A stretch of DNA of 64,000 nt from Candidatus Levyibacteriota bacterium (GTDB lineage Bacteria > Patescibacteriota > Microgenomatia > Levybacterales > UBA12049), in the NCBI GenBank assembly GCA_016186625.1, contig JACPLG010000008.1:16071-80070 (forward strand), in the 5' to 3' direction. This document shows positions 104 to 62,615 of this stretch, one piece after another. Position numbers and translations under genes: made by a program. The notes beneath the pieces were generated by a model. That model had not been told where the DNA came from. It saw nothing but the letters and a program-made list of their open reading frames with translations, and did no database searches. Numbering within the stretch: the first letter of the stretch is position 1; every line of letters begins with the position of its first letter.

Positions 104-1777
104 GTGGGTAGTTTCTACATTGATTTAACTATTGTTATCAGCTTGGCTGCATTTACCACAATAGTTTTTAGGTTTTTAAAACAGCCTCCAATTCTTGCAT
201 ATATTTTAACAGGTGTGGTTTTGGGACCGCTTGCCCTAATTCACATCAACGACGCTGAGGCTATGAGATCGTTAGCGGAAATTGGAATAACTTTGCTTCT
301 TTTTATGCTGGGATTGGAGCTGCGGTTTTCGGAATTAAAATCTGTAGGAAAGATCTCTATCATTACAGGAATTGGGCAAATCGTTTTTACTACCATTATT
401 GGGTTTTTGATCGCAACTTTTCTTGGATTTTCCCAAATAGCATCATTTTACATTGCAATAGCTCTCACTTTTTCAAGCACAATTATTATAGTTAAGCTTT
501 TGTCGGACAAGAGGGACCTAAACAGCCTTTATGGAAAAATTTCAGTAGGGTTTTTACTTGTACAGGATTTCGTTGCCATAATTGCTCTTATTTTTCTTTC
601 CGGATTTAGCGCAGAAAGCAATGTTTCGTACAATGACTTTCTTATTATAATACTTAAGGCTGTGGTTCTTTTTGGATGGGTAATTCTCCTTTCAAAAAAA
701 TTACTGCCGTATCTCATAAATAAGATTGCCCATTCCTCAGAAACCCTCTTTTTATTCTCTCTTGCGTGGGCTTTTGGAATTGCGGCAGTTGTTAGCTCTC
801 CCTCAATCGGTTTCTCTATTGAAATTGGCGGATTTTTAGCAGGGCTTGCACTTGCAAATTCTTATGAAAGTTATCAAATTATCACTAAAATAAGACCTCT
901 AAGGGATTTTTTTATAACAATATTCTTCGTGACACTTGGGATGGGACTTCTCTTATCTGATTTTTCAACGATTCTTGTCCCAGGCATTATATTGTCTCTT
1001 TTCGTACTAATCGGAAACCCGATAATTGTAATGGTACTTATGGGATTTTTGGGCTATAAAAAAAGAACAGGTTTTCTTGCAGGGCTAACAGTTGCCCAGA
1101 TATCCGAATTTTCGCTAATCGTTATGTTTATGGGGAATAGGATTGGGCATGTTTCGGACCAACACGTGGCATTAATCACTTTTGTGGGAGCCGTAACATT
1201 TGTTATGTCAACATACATGATTCTTAACGGAAATCTGCTTTATAAAATTTTCTCACCATATCTAGATATTTTTGAACGAGAGGACGTTAGGGAGAAAAAC
1301 TTAAAAACTAAAGATTTTAAAAACCACGTCATTTTAGTCGGAGTAAGACGTATGGGGGAGGGAATACTTGAGGCGCTTCTTAAGAATAAAGAAGATTTCG
1401 TAGCGGTTGATTTTGACCCAGATGTTATTGAGAAGCTCAAAGAGAAGGGAATCGACTCATTCTTTGGAGATATTGCAGATTCAGAAATCCAGGAACTAGT
1501 ATCATTAGATAAGGCAAGACTTGTTATTTCTACGGTGTCAGACATTGAGGACAATCTTATTCTTCTTCAGAATATTAGAAAACTTACCAAAAAGCCAAAA
1601 ACAGTAATGCTTGCTCTTGAAAAGCATGAAGCGCAAGAACTCTATTCCCAAGGGGCTGACTATGTTGTTGTTCCTCATATTGCAGGCGGTCACCATCTGG
1701 CAAAGATTTTAGTTGATGAAGACCACATGGAACTAATTGAAAAATATGCAGCCAGGGAGAAAGAATACATAAATTAA
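104..1777 (+). CDS. Monovalent cation:proton antiporter (CPA2, KefB-like) fused to a C-terminal TrkA-N/RCK NAD-binding domain. The ORF starts at GTG 104, so the start is uncertain.
   Basis: There are about 11 N-terminal TM helices carrying the Na+/H+-exchanger signature (ILTGVVLGPLAL...LAEIGITLLLFMLGLEL). The C-terminal domain has an 'ILVGVRRMGEGILEAL' Rossmann motif typical of TrkA-N. Confidence 0.8.
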   Translation: MGSFYIDLTIVISLAAFTTIVFRFLKQPPILAYILTGVVLGPLALIHINDAEAMRSLAEIGITLLLFMLGLELRFSELKSVGKISIITGIGQIVFTTIIGFLIATFLGFSQIASFYIAIALTFSSTIIIVKLLSDKRDLNSLYGKISVGFLLVQDFVAIIALIFLSGFSAESNVSYNDFLIIILKAVVLFGWVILLSKKLLPYLINKIAHSSETLFLFSLAWAFGIAAVVSSPSIGFSIEIGGFLAGLALANSYESYQIITKIRPLRDFFITIFFVTLGMGLLLSDFSTILVPGIILSLFVLIGNPIIVMVLMGFLGYKKRTGFLAGLTVAQISEFSLIVMFMGNRIGHVSDQHVALITFVGAVTFVMSTYMILNGNLLYKIFSPYLDIFEREDVREKNLKTKDFKNHVILVGVRRMGEGILEALLKNKEDFVAVDFDPDVIEKLKEKGIDSFFGDIADSEIQELVSLDKARLVISTVSDIEDNLILLQNIRKLTKKPKTVMLALEKHEAQELYSQGADYVVVPHIAGGHHLAKILVDEDHMELIEKYAAREKEYIN

Positions 1778-4610: not shown

Positions 4611-5807
4611 CTATTTAACCATTTCAGCTATTTCATCTATTTCGCCCTTTTTTTGTTCTCCTGTTGTCATGTCTTTTAATTCTAGTTTATCACCCTTCAC
4701 AATTAAAACAAACGGGATTTTCCTTTTGTCAGCATATCGGAGCTGCCTGTCCAGCGGTTTTTCGTCAACAAAGAGTTCTACATTTAGATCTTTGGCTCTT
4801 AGTTCGATTGCAACTTGAGCCGATCGAGGACTGGTGTTTGTTACTAAGACTTTTGTACCACCTAGATTTTCTGGGAACAAATCTAGTTCTGCCATTGCCT
4901 CAATAACTCGATCAAATCCGAAAGAGAAGCCGACTGCAGGAATCTTGTTTCCTGAAAAAATTCCGATTAAATCATCATATCTTCCTCCGCCACCCAAAGA
5001 ACCGGCAGGATAATCCTCGCTTGCTATTTCGAAAATTAAACCAGTGTAGTAGTCCAATCCTCTTGCCAGTTTCGGATCGAACTCTAAATAATCTTCATTT
5101 ATACCAAACTTACTTATATAAGAAGCGACTTTAAAGAAAGATTCTGTTTTTTTCTGACTGTTAATCTTTTGTAAGACATTGTTGGCTGCTTTCATTCCCA
5201 TGACGGTAGAAAGCTCATCTAAAACTTTTTCTTCGCCAACTTTTTCAATTTTGTCAATAGCGCGAGCAATAACTTTTCCTTCCTTATCTGAAAATAAATT
5301 GGAAAACACTGACCGATCATTTATTTTTACATTAAAATTCTTGAATCCTAATTTTTCAAAAGACTTAACAGCAACTGCAATTATTTCTGCATCGGCAAGT
5401 AGGGAAGGGGAGCCGACGGTGTCGATATCAACTTGGAGGAATTCTCTGAAACGGCCTTTTTGAGTATTTTCTGCGCGGTAGACGTTTTGGATTTGATAGC
5501 GTTTGAAGGGAAGAGGGAGGTCGTTTGCATACTGGGCAACAACTCGGGCCAAAGGAACTGTTTGATCGTAGCGCATTGCAACTTTTCTTCCGCCATTATC
5601 GGTAAAGCGATACATTAATTTATCGCCTTCATCCCCATATTTCCCCGCGAGGATATCCTCGTATTCTAAAACAGGAGTTTCAAGTGGCTCAAAGCCATAG
5701 GACTCAAACACTTTTTTCAAAGTGTCCAAAACATAATTTCTTTTCCGCGCTTCTTTTGGTAAAAAATCACGAAAACCTTTTAGTGTTTTAGGTTGAATAG
5801 TTGACAT
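4611..5807 (-). CDS. hisS: Histidine--tRNA ligase
   Basis: Class II aaRS motifs and HisRS-specific regions (GDKLMYRFTDNGGRKVAMRYDQTVPLARV; GGGGRYDDL). Confidence 0.9.
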   Translation of the reverse strand: MSTIQPKTLKGFRDFLPKEARKRNYVLDTLKKVFESYGFEPLETPVLEYEDILAGKYGDEGDKLMYRFTDNGGRKVAMRYDQTVPLARVVAQYANDLPLPFKRYQIQNVYRAENTQKGRFREFLQVDIDTVGSPSLLADAEIIAVAVKSFEKLGFKNFNVKINDRSVFSNLFSDKEGKVIARAIDKIEKVGEEKVLDELSTVMGMKAANNVLQKINSQKKTESFFKVASYISKFGINEDYLEFDPKLARGLDYYTGLIFEIASEDYPAGSLGGGGRYDDLIGIFSGNKIPAVGFSFGFDRVIEAMAELDLFPENLGGTKVLVTNTSPRSAQVAIELRAKDLNVELFVDEKPLDRQLRYADKRKIPFVLIVKGDKLELKDMTTGEQKKGEIDEIAEMVK

Positions 5808-5872
5808 ATATCATCTTCTTTGTTATATTATATATAACGAACTTCCCCCCGAGCAATCGGGGGTGATTTTTA

Positions 5873-6409
5873 TTAGGCCTCTTTTTTTACTTCTTCCTTG
5901 ATTTTCTCCAAGGGTAAATACCTGCTCGCACATTTTATTAATTCTTGAGCTACGTGGCCGCGCGCAGATACAATAATTATCTTTTTTTGTTCGGATTTCA
6001 AATATTCTACCGCCGGTTCAAAATCACTATCTCCACTGGCCAAGACCGCGACATCAAACTCTTTTACTTTCAGAACAATATCAATTGCCAACTTTACGTC
6101 AAAATTTCCTTTATGAACTGTAGTTTTATTTCTTTTATCGTGAATAACTTTCACTTCACGAGTTATCACATCATAACCTATTTTCTTTAAGGCTTTGAAA
6201 AAATCCAGCTGCTTTTTATTAGTTGAGATAACTGCTGTGTAAAAATAAGCACCCGTTATTATGCCCTGATTGCCCCAGTAATCAAGAAATTTCTTATAAT
6301 CTAATCTCCAGCCAAGTGATTTTTGAGAATAGAAAATATTTGCCGCGTCAATAAAAATCGCTATCCTCTTTCTCCTCGTTCGTTTTTTAGTCTTCGTCGA
6401 ACTTCTCAT
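5873..6409 (-). CDS. NYN/LabA-like (PIN-fold) domain protein
   Basis: IAIFIDAANIFY...VLASGDSDF is typical of NYN/LabA. Confidence 0.7.
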   Translation of the reverse strand: MRSSTKTKKRTRRKRIAIFIDAANIFYSQKSLGWRLDYKKFLDYWGNQGIITGAYFYTAVISTNKKQLDFFKALKKIGYDVITREVKVIHDKRNKTTVHKGNFDVKLAIDIVLKVKEFDVAVLASGDSDFEPAVEYLKSEQKKIIIVSARGHVAQELIKCASRYLPLEKIKEEVKKEA

Positions 6410-6488: not shown

Positions 6489-6600
6489 CAAAAAAAACCG
6501 CCTTGCGGCGGTTGCTTACTTGTTTGAAAGCTAAATACTAAGCACAAGAATCACATCCGCCTTTGAGACGAACATGATACCAATATGTTGAAATTAAAGT
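6489..6600 (-). ncRNA. Candidate small RNA or small-protein transcript of about 110 nt, with its own sigma70-like promoter and an intrinsic terminator
   Basis: Minus-strand TTGACA-N17-GATAAT at about 6640–6605. The terminator is GCAACCGCCGCAAGGCGGUUUUUUUU, ending near 6489. The transcript contains a possible 22-codon ORF (MKTLISTYWYHVRLKGGCDSCA). Confidence 0.3.
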
Positions 6601-6695
6601 TTTCATTCGCTTATTATCTCAAAAGCCTCAGCTTTTGTCAAAAATTTTGAGAATTATATTGGTTTAGCTTGCTAAATACAAATTTCCAAACAAAA

Positions 6696-6992
6696 TTAAT
6701 ATATCCAGAATATCGTAACCTCAGAACTCTCTGATGGATTTGGCGTTGGACGGCTTGCCCGTTGACGATTCAAATCCTCCCACTCAGCAAGAGCCCAAGC
6801 CGACAAAATAAGAGATAATCCCAATACTACAGTAGCTGCAGCAATTTCCCTTCGAGATGGATTTGGATTTACGAATGTTAATTTTTCTTCCCCTATTTTC
6901 TGAGAACCCGTTCCGATCTCTCCAGATATGTCAACAATTTGCTCTATTACTTCATTATTAATTCGTTCTGTTCCTGATGACATTATTCCCAC
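6696..6992 (-). CDS. Hypothetical small membrane protein. It overlaps the racemase start and is doubtful.
   Basis: An ORF with one predicted TM segment. No recognised domain. Confidence 0.25.
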   Translation of the reverse strand: MGIMSSGTERINNEVIEQIVDISGEIGTGSQKIGEEKLTFVNPNPSRREIAAATVVLGLSLILSAWALAEWEDLNRQRASRPTPNPSESSEVTIFWIY

Positions 6993-7695
6993 CTCCTTTC
7001 AAAATCTCTCTAACAGTAGCTTCTTCAAGGATTTGAGTTGTGTCTAAAACTCTTAGTTTGCTGTGTTTCTGAATAAGAAGCTGTAGATCAGTACATGCAA
7101 GTAATATGAAATCTGAAGGAAGCTTTTTTATGATTTTCTCCAAATCTTTTTTATCCTTTCGACCATGTGTTCTTTGAAGAATTCTGTTTATTATTTCCCC
7201 AATCTTATCTTGATCTTTCTTATCTGGGGTTCTTACTTTAATCCCAATTTCTTTAAGCTTAGAATCAAAAAGCTTATTTTTAATGGTGAAAGGCGTAGCC
7301 AAAAGACCAACATTTTTTGCCCTTTTCCTTTTAAGAAACATAACAGTTTCCTCAACAATACTTAAAACGGGAATATTAACGGCTTTTCTTATCTCATCAA
7401 TAAAAATATGCACGCTATTGCATGGGATAACTATAAAATCCGCTCCTCCTTTCTCTAAAACCTTAGCTGATTCAATAAGCCAGGAAAGGTATTTTTCCTT
7501 TCCTTTTGAATGCTTTATGAACTTTTCCTCTACTTCAAGCTCAACGGGAACATTTGTTATTAAGATTGATGGTCTACTTTTTTTATTTATTTTTGCACAC
7601 GATGATATAACTTCCATGTAGAAGTTAGCAGTAGTTTCTGGACCAAGCCCTCCAATAATTCCAAGCGTTTTCATATTATTTAGCTCTTCCATCAA
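6958..7695 (-). CDS. Asp/Glu/hydantoin racemase-family protein (aspartate racemase-like)
   Basis: The N-terminal LGIIGGLGPETTANFY and the later ...IVIPCNS.. / ...LLACTDL.. motifs are characteristic of the Asp/Glu racemase family. Confidence 0.7.
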   Translation of the reverse strand: MMEELNNMKTLGIIGGLGPETTANFYMEVISSCAKINKKSRPSILITNVPVELEVEEKFIKHSKGKEKYLSWLIESAKVLEKGGADFIVIPCNSVHIFIDEIRKAVNIPVLSIVEETVMFLKRKRAKNVGLLATPFTIKNKLFDSKLKEIGIKVRTPDKKDQDKIGEIINRILQRTHGRKDKKDLEKIIKKLPSDFILLACTDLQLLIQKHSKLRVLDTTQILEEATVREILKGGGNNVIRNRTN

Positions 7696-7836
7696 GTAAA
7701 GATCCGAAAGTAACTTCTGAAAGCACGCCTGAATCTTCTGCTAGAAGTAACATTAATCTTTCCAGATCTCTTCTGGCCCTTTTTAAATTCTCATCAGTAA
7801 AAGAATCTGCTCCTTTCCGCCTTGCATCCAGATCTA

Positions 7837-8616
7837 CTAGCAGCTCTCTACACATAATTCCCAGACTTTGATCAAGAGTCGGTTCTTGAACTTCTCCCGC
7901 TGGCACATATTGATAAATAAATTGGCTTGAGCACTTACTGTCGCTAAGCCCGATCCGCCATCTAAAGCTTCTTTAACTAAGCCTCTCACAGCTGAAAATT
8001 TTCTTTCAGAAGGAGGCATGGAATTTATTACAACTTCTGGAGGAGTTGTTAGAAATATAGAAGGATGATGTAAATCTGACCATCCAAAAGGATGATGTGC
8101 TGCATAAATCAGCGCATTTCTGGCTCCTTCCTCTCCGCCTCTTCGTCTTCCGCTTCCCGTTAATTTTTTTAATAGTTCCGGGTTGCAGTGGTCTGAAATT
8201 AAGCCAGATATTCCAGATAGAATTTCTAGAGCCTCATCTGTTATCTGCCCATCATCCTCAACAAAAAATGGAATTTCCGGAAAATGATTTTTAGCAAATA
8301 AGGCTAGGATTTCGCTTCCCCTAGTTATCTGCCATTGTGAGGCTTCCTCAGAAACCCCGTTTATATGTCGACTTATATTGATTGGTCTGAAAATTCTTAC
8401 AGTAGGAACTATAGCTCCTTCGGTTCTTTCTGCTATTAATTTAGCCAGCGAAAAAGTTGAAATGAAACCACTCAAAAATCGGGCAGGAAGTTGCCCTTCT
8501 TTATTTATTCCAAATACATTACTTACCCATAGCTCCTGGGTAGAATCTGGAATAACAATTTTCTCAGGATTTTTAAAATCCAAAAGTTCTGACTGTTCAA
8601 TTTCAATATCTCTCAT
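7837..8616 (-). CDS. Hypothetical protein under T-box control (ATG at 8616 with a GGAGG RBS). The ORF-track start at 8691 lies inside the riboswitch. The gene possibly continues to 7676 in another frame.
   Basis: The ATG at 8616 follows the T-box terminator and the RBS. No known domain was recognised. An overlapping 76-aa ORF (7676..7906) in the +1 frame looks protein-like. Confidence 0.5.
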   Translation of the reverse strand: MRDIEIEQSELLDFKNPEKIVIPDSTQELWVSNVFGINKEGQLPARFLSGFISTFSLAKLIAERTEGAIVPTVRIFRPINISRHINGVSEEASQWQITRGSEILALFAKNHFPEIPFFVEDDGQITDEALEILSGISGLISDHCNPELLKKLTGSGRRRGGEEGARNALIYAAHHPFGWSDLHHPSIFLTTPPEVVINSMPPSERKFSAVRGLVKEALDGGSGLATVSAQANLFINMCQREKFKNRLLIKVWELCVESC

Positions 8617-8630
8617 ATATTTCCTCCAAC

Positions 8631-8957
8631 AAAAAACCTCGCCCCAATCCCGATTTAATCGGGACAAGGGCGAGGATTCTCGCGGTACCACCTTGTTTTA
8701 CTAATTTGCCACTAAAAAATCCCCGTCGGGGGATTATTACTTGATAGCTAAAATAGCCTTATTCAAGTGCTCCGTTTCCGACACACTCTTTCTGCTGTAA
8801 CGGGCTTACCCGTAAACCTTAATTGTCTCCTTTAGGGTTTCAGCTCCGGAGGGTAATTCAAAGTTTTAAGTTCGGGGAGTCTTTCATCAGCCGCTCCCTT
8901 TCTTTTGTCACCTTAAAACTTCTACTGCGTCTCCATCAAAGCCTTTTGTTAAATTGT
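8631..8957 (-). promoter_or_regulatory. T-box riboswitch leader comprising a promoter, Stem I, a Stem III-like hairpin, and an antiterminator/terminator
   Basis: Minus-strand promoter TTGACA(8993-8988)-N17-TATTAT(8970-8965). Conserved T-box sequence AGGUGGUACCGCG (plus 8680-8693). Terminator CCUCGCCC...GGGCGAGG+U6 (8637-8679). Stem I has a K-turn (GGC-UUU-GA / GGAGC) and helix AAGUUUUAAG/CUUAAAACUU. The specifier loop has AGUA on the 5' side and UGAAUUAC on the 3' side. Confidence 0.65.
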
Positions 8958-9074
8958 TAAAGTTATAATACCACATCATTTGACTCTTGTCAAACTATGA
9001 GCCTAGCAGTTTTGTTAGCCTCATTAATCCCTATGTGTCTACCTAACACGATCCTGGTGTGTGAGCTTGGTTAT

Positions 9075-15369: not shown

Positions 15370-15399
15370 ATTATAACTTGTTTAATCAAAAAATTAAAG

Positions 15400-15482
15400 T
15401 GGGCGAGGAGGGAGTCGAACCCACACAGCCTTGCGACTAGTAGTTTTTGAGACTACCGCGTATACCATTCCGCCACTCGCCC
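15400..15482 (-). tRNA. tRNA-Leu with anticodon CAA and a long variable arm
   Basis: The minus-strand sequence GGGCGAGUGGCGGAAUGG...GGUAGUCUCAAAAACUACU...GGGUUCGACUCCC...CUCGCCCA folds as a class II tRNA. The anticodon loop is CU-CAA-AA. Confidence 0.8.
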
Positions 15483-61409: not shown

Positions 61410-62615
61410 TCACGTCACATTTAATTTTACCACTTTTTTCCCAACCGACAAAATTAAGTCTTCTCCAGAATTTGCGGCAAAACCTTCACCAAGCTTTATT
61501 CCCGTTCCATTAAGTGAAACTCCATTTTGATCAAATAATCTTTTCGCATCCGATTTTGAACTCGCCAGCCCGTGTTCAACCAAAAAGTCATCATCGATTA
61601 CACCATCTTCGTTTACAGTAATTTCTGCAACTTTTTCCGGCAACTCTCCTTTCTGAACCACTCTTTCAAATTCTTTTTCTGCTTTTTTAGCATCTCCTTC
61701 CGAGTGAAGTTCGGAAACTATCGCAGTGGCTAACCTCTTCTTAATATTCAGCGGATTTTGTTCTATTTCTTCTTCTGTTGGAATTTTATCAATAGGTGTA
61801 TTTGTTGCAAGATTAAAGTAATTTAATATTTGGTCATCATTTATTGCCATTATTTTTCTGAACATTTCAAACGGTGTGTCATCAAGCCAGATTGCATTTC
61901 CCCAACTTTTACTCATTTTTCTTCCATCCGTTCCCATAAGAAATTCGGTTGCCAAAATGAAAGATTCTTTATTTCGAAGTTTTCTTTGAAGTATTCTTCC
62001 GGCCTGCATATTAAAGGTTTGGTCTGTGCCACCAATTTGTAGATCTGTATCCATAAAATAACTATCATAACCCTGCATGATCGGATATTCTGTTTCGTCA
62101 AGTCTTATGCTTTTTCCATCCTCCAAACGTTTTTTAATTAATTCCCGGCTTATAAAATCATTTAGTGAGAATTGTTGTTTTAACTTAAAAACATCTGCGT
62201 AGGTTAATTTAGAAAGCCACTCACTGTTGTAGCGGATATTAACTTTTGAAAAATTCAATAACTTCTGCGCCTGTGATTTATACGTCTTAAAATTTTCCTC
62301 GATTTCCTCTTTTGTTAAGATGGGTCTCTCAGAGTCCTTGTCTGAGGTATCTCCAACAAGCGCAGTAAAATCACCAATCAGAAAAGTAACATTATGTCCA
62401 AGATCTGCAAATCTTTGGAGTTTGCGAAGCGGAACTGCGTGTCCAAGGTGGATTTTAATAGCTGTTGGGTCAATCCCTAAATATACATTTAACTTTTCAC
62501 CAGATTTCAACTTTTCCTCGAGCCTGTTTTTGCTAGGGATAATATTTGCAACAGCCCGTGTCAAAAGCTCTTCAATTTGATCCATATGGCTTCGAGTATA
62601 GCATAAAAAACGCAA
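61410..62615 (-). CDS. tyrS: Tyrosine--tRNA ligase
   Basis: HLGHAVPL (HIGH), KMSKS, and a C-terminal S4-like domain. Confidence 0.9.
   Translation of the reverse strand: MRFLCYTRSHMDQIEELLTRAVANIIPSKNRLEEKLKSGEKLNVYLGIDPTAIKIHLGHAVPLRKLQRFADLGHNVTFLIGDFTALVGDTSDKDSERPILTKEEIEENFKTYKSQAQKLLNFSKVNIRYNSEWLSKLTYADVFKLKQQFSLNDFISRELIKKRLEDGKSIRLDETEYPIMQGYDSYFMDTDLQIGGTDQTFNMQAGRILQRKLRNKESFILATEFLMGTDGRKMSKSWGNAIWLDDTPFEMFRKIMAINDDQILNYFNLATNTPIDKIPTEEEIEQNPLNIKKRLATAIVSELHSEGDAKKAEKEFERVVQKGELPEKVAEITVNEDGVIDDDFLVEHGLASSKSDAKRLFDQNGVSLNGTGIKLGEGFAANSGEDLILSVGKKVVKLNVT

Follow-up and report, generated by a model that had tools for sequence, protein, structure and literature searches.

A tyrosine-specific T-box leader precedes genes for a protein of predicted tyrosyl-tRNA synthetase-like fold and an amino-acid racemase in Candidatus Levybacteria

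T-box riboswitches of the RF00230 family, such as the Bacillus subtilis tyrS and glyQS leaders, share a recognisable set of parts. Stem I carries a kink-turn (K-turn), a specifier loop with an S-turn, an AG bulge and a distal loop, and it is followed by Stem II and Stem IIA/B. Further downstream come a 14-nt T-box sequence with a UGGN bulge and a competing antiterminator and terminator, and the specifier codon matches the amino acid of the regulated pathway. The subject here is a leader of this kind, together with the two genes behind it, in a 64,000-nt stretch of DNA (the window) from a metagenome-assembled genome (MAG) of Candidatus Levybacteria, a lineage of the Candidate Phyla Radiation (CPR). 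The leader is a genuine RF00230 T-box, ordinary apart from a few lineage-specific quirks, and it is specific for tyrosine. The interest lies in its cargo more than in the RNA. In contrast to the described systems, the regulated genes are not a recognised aminoacyl-tRNA synthetase (aaRS), biosynthetic or transport gene, and the host belongs to the CPR. Gene 1 encodes a protein with a predicted fold like that of tyrosyl-tRNA synthetase (TyrRS), and gene 2 encodes an amino-acid racemase. Coordinates are those of the window, in which leader and operon lie on the minus strand. L-numbers denote contigs of homologues, which were fetched and then searched for T-boxes 5' of the gene-1 relatives. The leader consists of the following features.

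8965..8993, minus strand: sigma-70-type promoter with an extended -10 TG (11/12 matches).
8663..8948, minus strand: T-box leader RF00230 with Stem I, Stem II, Stem IIA/B, Stem III region and antiterminator (98.8 bits; covariation in 11 relatives).
8846..8934, minus strand: Stem I with basal K-turn, specifier loop, AG bulge AGAAA and distal loop GGCUGAUGAAA (model alignment, fold, compensatory changes).
8853..8855, minus strand: specifier codon UAC (Tyr), preceded by GAA (8859..8857) and the variable base U (8856) and followed by C (8852) (12 related T-boxes).
8765..8788, minus strand: extra hairpin GAGUGUGUCGGAAACGGAGCACUU (GAGUGU...GCACUU) between Stem IIA/B and Stem III (alignment columns 186-213, compensatory changes).
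8712..8735, minus strand: GC-rich hairpin with a U6 tail, occupying the place of Stem III (-9.8 kcal/mol).
8684..8690, minus strand: antiterminator bulge UGGUACC (UGGU invariant in relatives).
8631..8675, minus strand: intrinsic terminator of 19 pairs (9-bp and 8-bp helices with a 1x1 mismatch between them) and U6 (fold).

An initial annotation of this DNA, made from the sequence letters, had proposed that a T-box controls an unrecognised open reading frame (ORF) and an Asp/Glu-racemase-family gene. This has been borne out, and the two genes form an operon. An Rfam cmscan search of the whole window returned a single T-box match, RF00230 at 8948..8663, which covers the full length of the model (positions 1-219). 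Its score of 98.8 bits (E 1.6e-20) is above the gathering threshold of 93. The proposed sigma70 promoter is present as TTGACA-17-TATTAT at 8993..8965 and agrees with the consensus at 11 of 12 positions. Stem I contains the helices that had been described, GGAG/CUCC and GAAGUUUUAAG/CUUAAAACUUU, as judged by sequence, model alignment and fold. Its K-turn has the GA motif, and the two sides of its internal loop, ACGCAGUA (5') and GAAUUACC (3'), form the expected AGUA/GAA S-turn. The AG bulge and the distal loop are there too, with small departures from the T-box consensus. Every defining feature of RF00230 that could be tested was found, except a purine 3' of the specifier.

Comparison with relatives supports the fold. 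An alignment of 11 related leaders shows compensatory changes at 26 of the 55 predicted pairs, those of the Stem I helices included. The leader differs from described T-boxes in several respects: it has an extra base between the S-turn GAA and the codon, a C or G where the base after the codon is usually A, an additional hairpin past Stem IIA/B, and a GC hairpin with a run of six to eight U residues as its Stem III. The additional hairpin lies outside the Rfam model, which treats it as an insertion, and it has been kept within the lineage. The GC hairpin noticed earlier, AUCCCCCGACGGGGAU, is likewise real and conserved. It and its U-run (U6-8) are kept in all 11 aligned leaders (L001-L019 and the window), and together they look like an intrinsic terminator, perhaps an early one, or a strong pause site ahead of the antiterminator.

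The switch itself is of the transcription-attenuating type. The near-consensus T-box sequence AAGGUGGUACCGCG stands at 8693..8681, as had been proposed, and the antiterminator forms with the canonical 7-nt bulge UGGUACC (-12.4 kcal/mol). The intrinsic terminator that had been described is also present, as a stem at 8675..8637 followed by U6. It is far more stable at -31.5 kcal/mol, with a z-score of -7.4, and none of 200 shuffled sequences was equally stable. The 3' arm of the antiterminator overlaps the 5' arm of the terminator through the common segment CCUCGCCCUUG, and therefore the two structures are mutually exclusive. A Shine-Dalgarno (SD) sequence, GGAGG, lies at 8627..8623 and is 6 nt from the ATG at 8616, not 7 as first reported. 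A translational T-box that sequesters the SD was considered and rejected, because no conserved helix includes the SD and a strong intrinsic terminator lies ahead of it.

Which amino acid does the leader sense? The answer comes from 12 T-boxes, namely those of the window, L001, L002/L003, L004, L005, L006, L008, L013, L014, L016, the distant L018/L019 and L021. The related T-boxes score 65-101 bits (E 1.7e-12 or better). The 3' sides of their specifier loops read as follows.

Window, L006, L008, L013: the GAAUUACC given above.
L001, L019: GAAGUACC.
L002, L005, L016: GAAUUACG.
L004, L014: GAAAUACG.
L021: GAAAUACC.

The base after GAA can be U, G or A, and the next three bases are UAC in 12 of 12 leaders. 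Since UAC is invariant while the base before it varies, the specifier is UAC (Tyr), set off by one extra base from the GAA of the S-turn. The other contact with tRNA fits as well. UGGU in the bulge is invariant among the relatives and, judging from its sequence, would base-pair with the 3'-terminal ACCA of a tRNA that has the discriminator A73. Bacterial tRNATyr carries A73.

Three further RNA elements were seen on two of these contigs. On L004, a weak second T-box (815..1043, 42.7 bits) precedes an operon that encodes a 121-aa protein, a 384-aa protein without Pfam matches and a luciferase-like monooxygenase. The Tyr T-box operon comes immediately after it, and the same gene order is found in L014. 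The 384-aa and 408-aa neighbours in L004 showed no relatedness to the gene-1 family. On L013, a short T-box that lacks most of Stem I (676..837, 63.9 bits) precedes a 139-aa ORF without a Pfam match, and a SAM-I/IV riboswitch lies further downstream (4981..5094).

A second line of evidence comes from orthologues that have no T-box. Classical attenuators such as those of E. coli trp, pheA and his combine a short ORF with clustered codons, alternative hairpins and a terminator. The same arrangement is found in six contigs whose gene-1 proteins are 40-53% identical orthologues (L007, L009, L010, L011, L012 and L015). A promoter, a short ORF and a terminator lie directly 5' of the gene, with W-Y-Y or Y-W-Y-Y codons in the attenuators at these positions.

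L007, 4876..5003: leader-peptide attenuator.
L009, 163..303: leader-peptide attenuator.
L010, 965..1103: leader-peptide attenuator.
L011, 325..463: leader-peptide attenuator.
L012, 5..138: leader-peptide attenuator.
L015, 129..258: leader-peptide attenuator.

The leader peptides are MKNTFNWYYGEASSGGLLSVM, MKSVLNWYYGRASSGGLLSVM, MKCAFNNWYYGETSSGGLLAVM, MKRKTIIVSYWYYNKPLGEALLS, MKSVNELNYWYYKEPLREALLS and MLNRQNNYWYHTFLREACLS. The leader ORFs have 17-23 codons with two to four Tyr each, mostly adjacent, in runs such as W-Y-Y, Y-Y-Y and Y-Y-Y-Y (for example ...NWYYG..., ...SYWYYN..., ...NYYYP... and ...KYYYYNN...). Tyr makes up about 1% of the gene-1 family's own residues, compared with these two to four per short leader. 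Behind the ORFs, GGGAGG...CCUCCC...GGGAGG-U7 provides the alternative hairpins of the classical design.

Two more distant loci extend the picture. In L019 (356..830), two switches stand in tandem, first a Tyr T-box and its terminator, then a YYY leader, MKNRNTKSNYYYPRKGG, with a second terminator. Both precede a distant family member, behind which come a PPDK_N-domain protein and an aminotransferase. In L022, the leader MGKLINKYYYYNNFSKGGGLA (YYYY) stands 5' of the relative P0035, and a Phe leader, MLRNSFLFKYFSFIFRKEGGLK, in which 5 of 22 residues are Phe, stands with the same terminator design 5' of a distant paralogue. Clustered codons, alternative hairpins and a terminator are thus found in L007, L009-L012, L015, L019 and L022. 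Where these leaders depart from the classical attenuators is in their occurrence in uncultivated lineages, their Tyr codons and, in L019, the tandem with a T-box. To our knowledge, none of the classical textbook attenuators uses Tyr codons.

The two L022 paralogues lie side by side.

L022, 3552..4834 and 4867..5972: adjacent distant paralogues, one behind the Phe leader and one (P0035) behind the YYYY leader.

The gene just upstream of P0035 is the distant paralogue (hhalign probability 79%, E 1.6e-5, 209 columns). The superfamily therefore seems to have amino-acid-specific versions, each induced by a shortage of its own charged tRNA. Further upstream in L022 are MR_MLE, Peptidase_M20 and LeuA-like genes.

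The genes themselves provide the third line of evidence. In 13 of the 13 loci that extend far enough, the racemase gene adjoins gene 1 (window, L001, L002/L003, L004, L005, L006, L007, L010, L013, L014, L015, L016 and the divergent relative L021). The order of the two is reversed in L006, and the stop codon of the first often overlaps the start codon of the second. Past the racemase gene, the operons of L002/L003 and L021 continue into a canonical tyrS (PF00579; the S4 domain is faint for L002/L003). The invariant UAC, the Tyr-codon leader peptides and the presence of tyrS in the operon are three independent lines that point to tyrosine, so the specifier and the genes under its control agree on the amino acid. 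The window genome also has a canonical TyrRS gene, located outside the operon.

61410..62585, minus strand: canonical TyrRS gene of the window genome (PF00579, 230.7 bits).

No T-box or leader peptide was found 5' of this tyrS, where there is a short promoter region only. In the window genome, then, tyrS itself is outside the control of the Tyr T-box, which acts on the TyrRS-like gene instead.

Gene 2 is the easier of the two cargo genes to classify.

6958..7674, minus strand: two-cysteine amino-acid racemase (PF01177, TIGR00035), with its ATG at 7674, 1 nt past the upstream stop codon.

It is translationally coupled to gene 1. The matches are strong (PF01177, 127 bits against a cut-off of 31; TIGR00035, 154.8 bits against 93.1), and the nearest solved relative is the Pyrococcus horikoshii aspartate racemase 1JFL (about 31% identity, E 6e-33). 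Gene 2 shares with 1JFL and with the RacX/YgeA-type racemases of TIGR00035 the catalytic cysteines and the CN(T/S)xH and ACTD motifs. All 12 operon racemases compared keep both catalytic cysteines, the counterparts of C82 and C194. However, the positions of 1JFL R48 and K164, which we take to bind the side-chain carboxylate of aspartate, are V and Q in the window and variable in the relatives, and a (V/I)Pxxxx(E)E loop stands in place of the PDR loop of 1JFL. Invariant cysteines combined with unconserved R48 and K164 positions suggest a catalytically competent racemase with a specificity other than aspartate. A further difference from the known racemases is that gene 2 is always coupled to the TyrRS-fold gene under Tyr control. 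On the 3' side of the racemase gene there is a terminator-like hairpin (6578..6550, minus strand), and a near-consensus promoter, TTGACA-17-GATAAT (6641..6613, minus strand), precedes an NYN-domain gene (6409..5873), with HisRS next (5807..4611). A 98-aa ORF (6696..6992) overlaps the end of the racemase gene; it has two sub-threshold Pfam matches only and may be spurious.

Gene 1 is harder to place. The 259-aa ORF is identical to the NCBI hypothetical protein HYW63_02600 of a Candidatus Levybacteria MAG. Homologues number only 20 among 5.8 billion proteins, and the 19 others are all 322-335 aa long. A profile search of 1.84 billion representative proteins found 97 relatives, 22 of them with E <1e-30, and none of the names looked up, for 20 relatives, was informative (one was 'hypothetical protein'). 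Neither the 259-aa ORF nor a 76-aa continuation of it matched Pfam or NCBIfam, and searches of the PDB by sequence (phmmer and a profile search) gave noise only. Nothing recurrent was found by Pfam in 10 distant homologues, nor was there a PF00579 or other recurrent Pfam signal at E<=1 in 75 superfamily members. With hhalign, the family and superfamily profiles reached a probability below 1% against an approximate sequence of Methanocaldococcus jannaschii TyrRS.

The predicted structure gives a different answer. An AlphaFold2 model of the orthologue P0002, built from a 19-sequence alignment, has a pLDDT of 92.2 and a pTM of 0.91. When it was compared with the PDB by Foldseek, all 50 of the best matches listed were TyrRS or TrpRS (best E 5.6e-4, TM 0.31-0.45). 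The initial annotation had found no recognisable domain in the product, and this holds for sequence but not for the predicted fold, which is that of a class Ic aaRS, a Rossmann catalytic domain with the TyrRS/TrpRS architecture. The relationship to TyrRS is visible in the predicted structure alone.

The hallmarks of the class are nevertheless missing. The region after strand 29-34, where HIGH would be expected, reads GINKEGxLPARFLSGF and has no conserved His; R46 alone is kept there throughout the superfamily. After strand 229-235, where KMSKS would be expected, the sequence is CGTPHY, with no Lys or Ser and with P241 and Y243 conserved instead. Y171 is invariant in the superfamily, and R46, N86, H175, P241 and Y243 are found in at least 90% of members. 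By position, on a manual reading of the model, Y171-x3-H175 would lie on the helix that bears the amino-acid-specificity residues of TyrRS and TrpRS. Set against the class Ic enzymes, the family has its own signature (LPARF, VRIFxP, RGGExG, YAAHHPFGW, NTLPPSE and GTPHY), lacks HMMER or hhalign similarity to them and coexists with a canonical TyrRS. Because HIGH, KMSKS and a sequence-profile match are all absent, gene 1 should not be filed as an aaRS despite its predicted fold. Cyclodipeptide synthases (CDPS) and PvcA are similar in that their class I aaRS-like fold likewise lacks the ATP signatures. Proteins of this sort have repeatedly gained new chemistry, as in CDPS, the isonitrile synthases, HisZ and MshC. 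The isonitrile synthases PvcA/Dit1 act on tyrosine, and HisZ (class II) is an aaRS paralogue that partners a metabolic enzyme, HisG, for the same amino acid.

One complication is that the copy of gene 1 in the window is broken.

7837..8616, minus strand: N-terminal 238 codons of gene 1, then 21 out-of-frame codons and a stop (259 aa; NCBI hypothetical protein HYW63_02600).
7902..7903, minus strand: point at which 31 bp are missing by comparison with the 87%-identical orthologue (P0002, L001 DNA), seen as a gap at alignment columns 714-745.
7676..7906, minus strand: C-terminal 73 codons of gene 1 in another frame (aligns to P0002 residues 250-324).

The deletion removes the conserved GTPHYILLENT, with its GTPHY motif, and shifts the frame. 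The earlier view that a 259-aa product is controlled by the T-box is thus right about the control of the ORF, but its length is that of the frameshift product of a 31-bp deletion in a protein of about 325 aa. The suspicion of a C-terminal extension to 7676 was sound, as coding does continue there in another frame. Either gene 1 became a pseudogene recently in this genome, or the MAG was misassembled at this point. The leader and the racemase gene are intact, which argues against an old decay of gene 1.

How might these parts work together? The reading that we favour, at a probability of roughly 0.85, is that a transcription-attenuating, tRNATyr-specific T-box controls an operon of a TyrRS-fold gene and a racemase gene that would supply L-Tyr or charged tRNATyr. 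RNA polymerase would start at the promoter at 8993..8965, and Stem I would present UAC (8855..8853) to the GUA anticodon of tRNATyr. If the tRNA is uncharged, its ACCA end would pair with UGGU (8690..8687) in the antiterminator bulge. The weak antiterminator could then prevail over the strong terminator (8675..8631), and transcription would enter the two-gene operon. At a time of shortage, the operon would raise the supply of L-Tyr or of charged tRNATyr, which is probably its function. The likeliest route would be for the racemase to turn D-Tyr into L-Tyr. The TyrRS-fold protein might be a partner that binds Tyr or tRNATyr and lends the racemase its specificity, for which HisZ and HisG provide a precedent. 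Alternatively, it might be an enzyme that acts on Tyr or Tyr-tRNA without ATP, in the manner of CDPS or PvcA.

Several observations weigh against this reading. The first is the break in gene 1, which may mean that the operon in the window is half functional, or else that the deletion is an assembly error. Second, the presence of a canonical TyrRS in the same genome leaves the need for a TyrRS-like protein unexplained. Third, distant relatives have a class I/II aminotransferase rather than a racemase beside them. Behind P0031 come a PPDK_N-domain protein and a class I/II aminotransferase. P0037 comes after an aminotransferase and is near a TrpRS/TyrRS-family gene and a chorismate-mutase-domain gene. 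This fits Tyr supply generally, but not the racemisation of D-Tyr in particular. The remaining points concern the RNA. The purine that the initial annotation expected 3' of the specifier (GAA-NNN-Pu) is C in the window; across the 12 leaders the base is C seven times and G five times. The extra base between GAA and the codon makes for unusual loop spacing. Finally, no tRNATyr gene with which the pairing could be checked directly was found in the window or in the 16 related loci.

What if the protein acts on aminoacyl-tRNA instead of ATP? In this CDPS-like scenario it might be, for example, a D-Tyr-tRNATyr deacylase, with the racemase recycling the D-Tyr. We consider this unlikely. In a manual alignment, Asn38 takes the place of the catalytic Ser of CDPS, a T-box would read D-Tyr-tRNA as charged, and the aminotransferase neighbours of the distant relatives do not suit such a role. 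A tblastn search of the 64-kb window with an approximate E. coli Dtd sequence gave no match, which is uninformative at this scope.

A working, non-canonical second TyrRS, induced on starvation and fed with L-Tyr by the racemase, is a rather improbable explanation. It would account for the TyrRS and TrpRS structures among the nearest folds, which include part of the C-terminal helical domain, and aaRS genes are the classical targets of T-boxes. The paralogue behind a Phe leader also suggests amino-acid-specific versions. However, an enzyme of this kind would be expected to have HIGH and KMSKS, and the 75 superfamily members and the hhalign comparison with the approximate M. jannaschii sequence give no hint of PF00579. 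Moreover, the window genome encodes a canonical TyrRS, and some lineages have one within the operon itself.

The superfamily could instead serve branch-point aromatic synthesis or salvage, as an analogue of TyrA/PheA or of a keto-acid step with separate Tyr and Phe paralogues. The adjoining Tyr-leader and Phe-leader paralogues of L022 would make sense on this account, as would the distant members beside Aminotran_1_2 genes, one of them near the chorismate-mutase-domain gene. Against this, the predicted fold is that of an aaRS and not of a dehydrogenase or dehydratase. Operons of the Levybacteria type have the racemase alone as partner, with no aminotransferase or chorismate mutase, and there were no shikimate-pathway genes at the loci examined. 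We doubt this explanation.

Other registers of the specifier loop fare worse. Reading one base 3' of UAC gives ACC or ACG (Thr), and the base after UAC is only C or G, so these codons would be synonymous. This register is nevertheless very improbable and was rejected on comparative grounds. In the fold, the codon would directly abut the CUCC helix with no unpaired base in between, the leader peptides contain 0-1 Thr, none conserved, against two to four adjacent Tyr, and the operon's aaRS gene is tyrS instead of thrS. Weakest of all is the Leu (UUA) or Ile (AUU) specifier of the initial annotation, for which speak the usual GAA-NNN spacing of GAA-UUA-C in the window and a tRNA-Leu(CAA) gene 6.5 kb from the T-box (15399..15482, minus strand, the only tRNA in the window), and which was likewise rejected because the same register gives UUA, GUA or AUA (Leu, Val or Ile) in orthologous leaders while the next one gives UAC in all 12, the anticodon CAA reads UUG and not UUA, the leader peptides of orthologues are rich in Tyr rather than Leu or Ile, and tyrS is within the operon in two lineages. 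That tRNA-Leu is unrelated to the T-box. The lesson is that a T-box specifier is not readable from one sequence by fixed spacing.

With the tRNATyr-specific reading retained, a broader proposal can be made about the proteins. The gene-1 superfamily is very rare and unannotated, with no Pfam model and no solved relative. A literature search returned nothing on the gene-1 family, on T-boxes in the CPR or on a TyrRS-like protein with a racemase, which is absence of evidence only. Tentatively, and as a possibility rather than an expectation, the superfamily could have descended from class Ic aaRSs, or converged with them, and have lost HIGH and KMSKS. Its Tyr and Phe types, together with a racemase or an aminotransferase, might secure L-Tyr or Tyr-tRNATyr in reduced genomes. 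They could do so either by handling D-/L-Tyr or Tyr-tRNA independently of ATP or as HisZ-like specificity subunits of the racemase.

Two unrelated sensors of tRNATyr charging, the T-box and the Tyr-codon leader, converge on the same gene pair, and this assigns a role in tyrosine shortage to a protein superfamily that had no annotation. A Tyr- and Phe-specific set of synthetase-like proteins, coupled to a racemase in the CPR, bears on how aromatic amino acids are acquired in reduced genomes. It also bears on the diversification of the aaRS fold.

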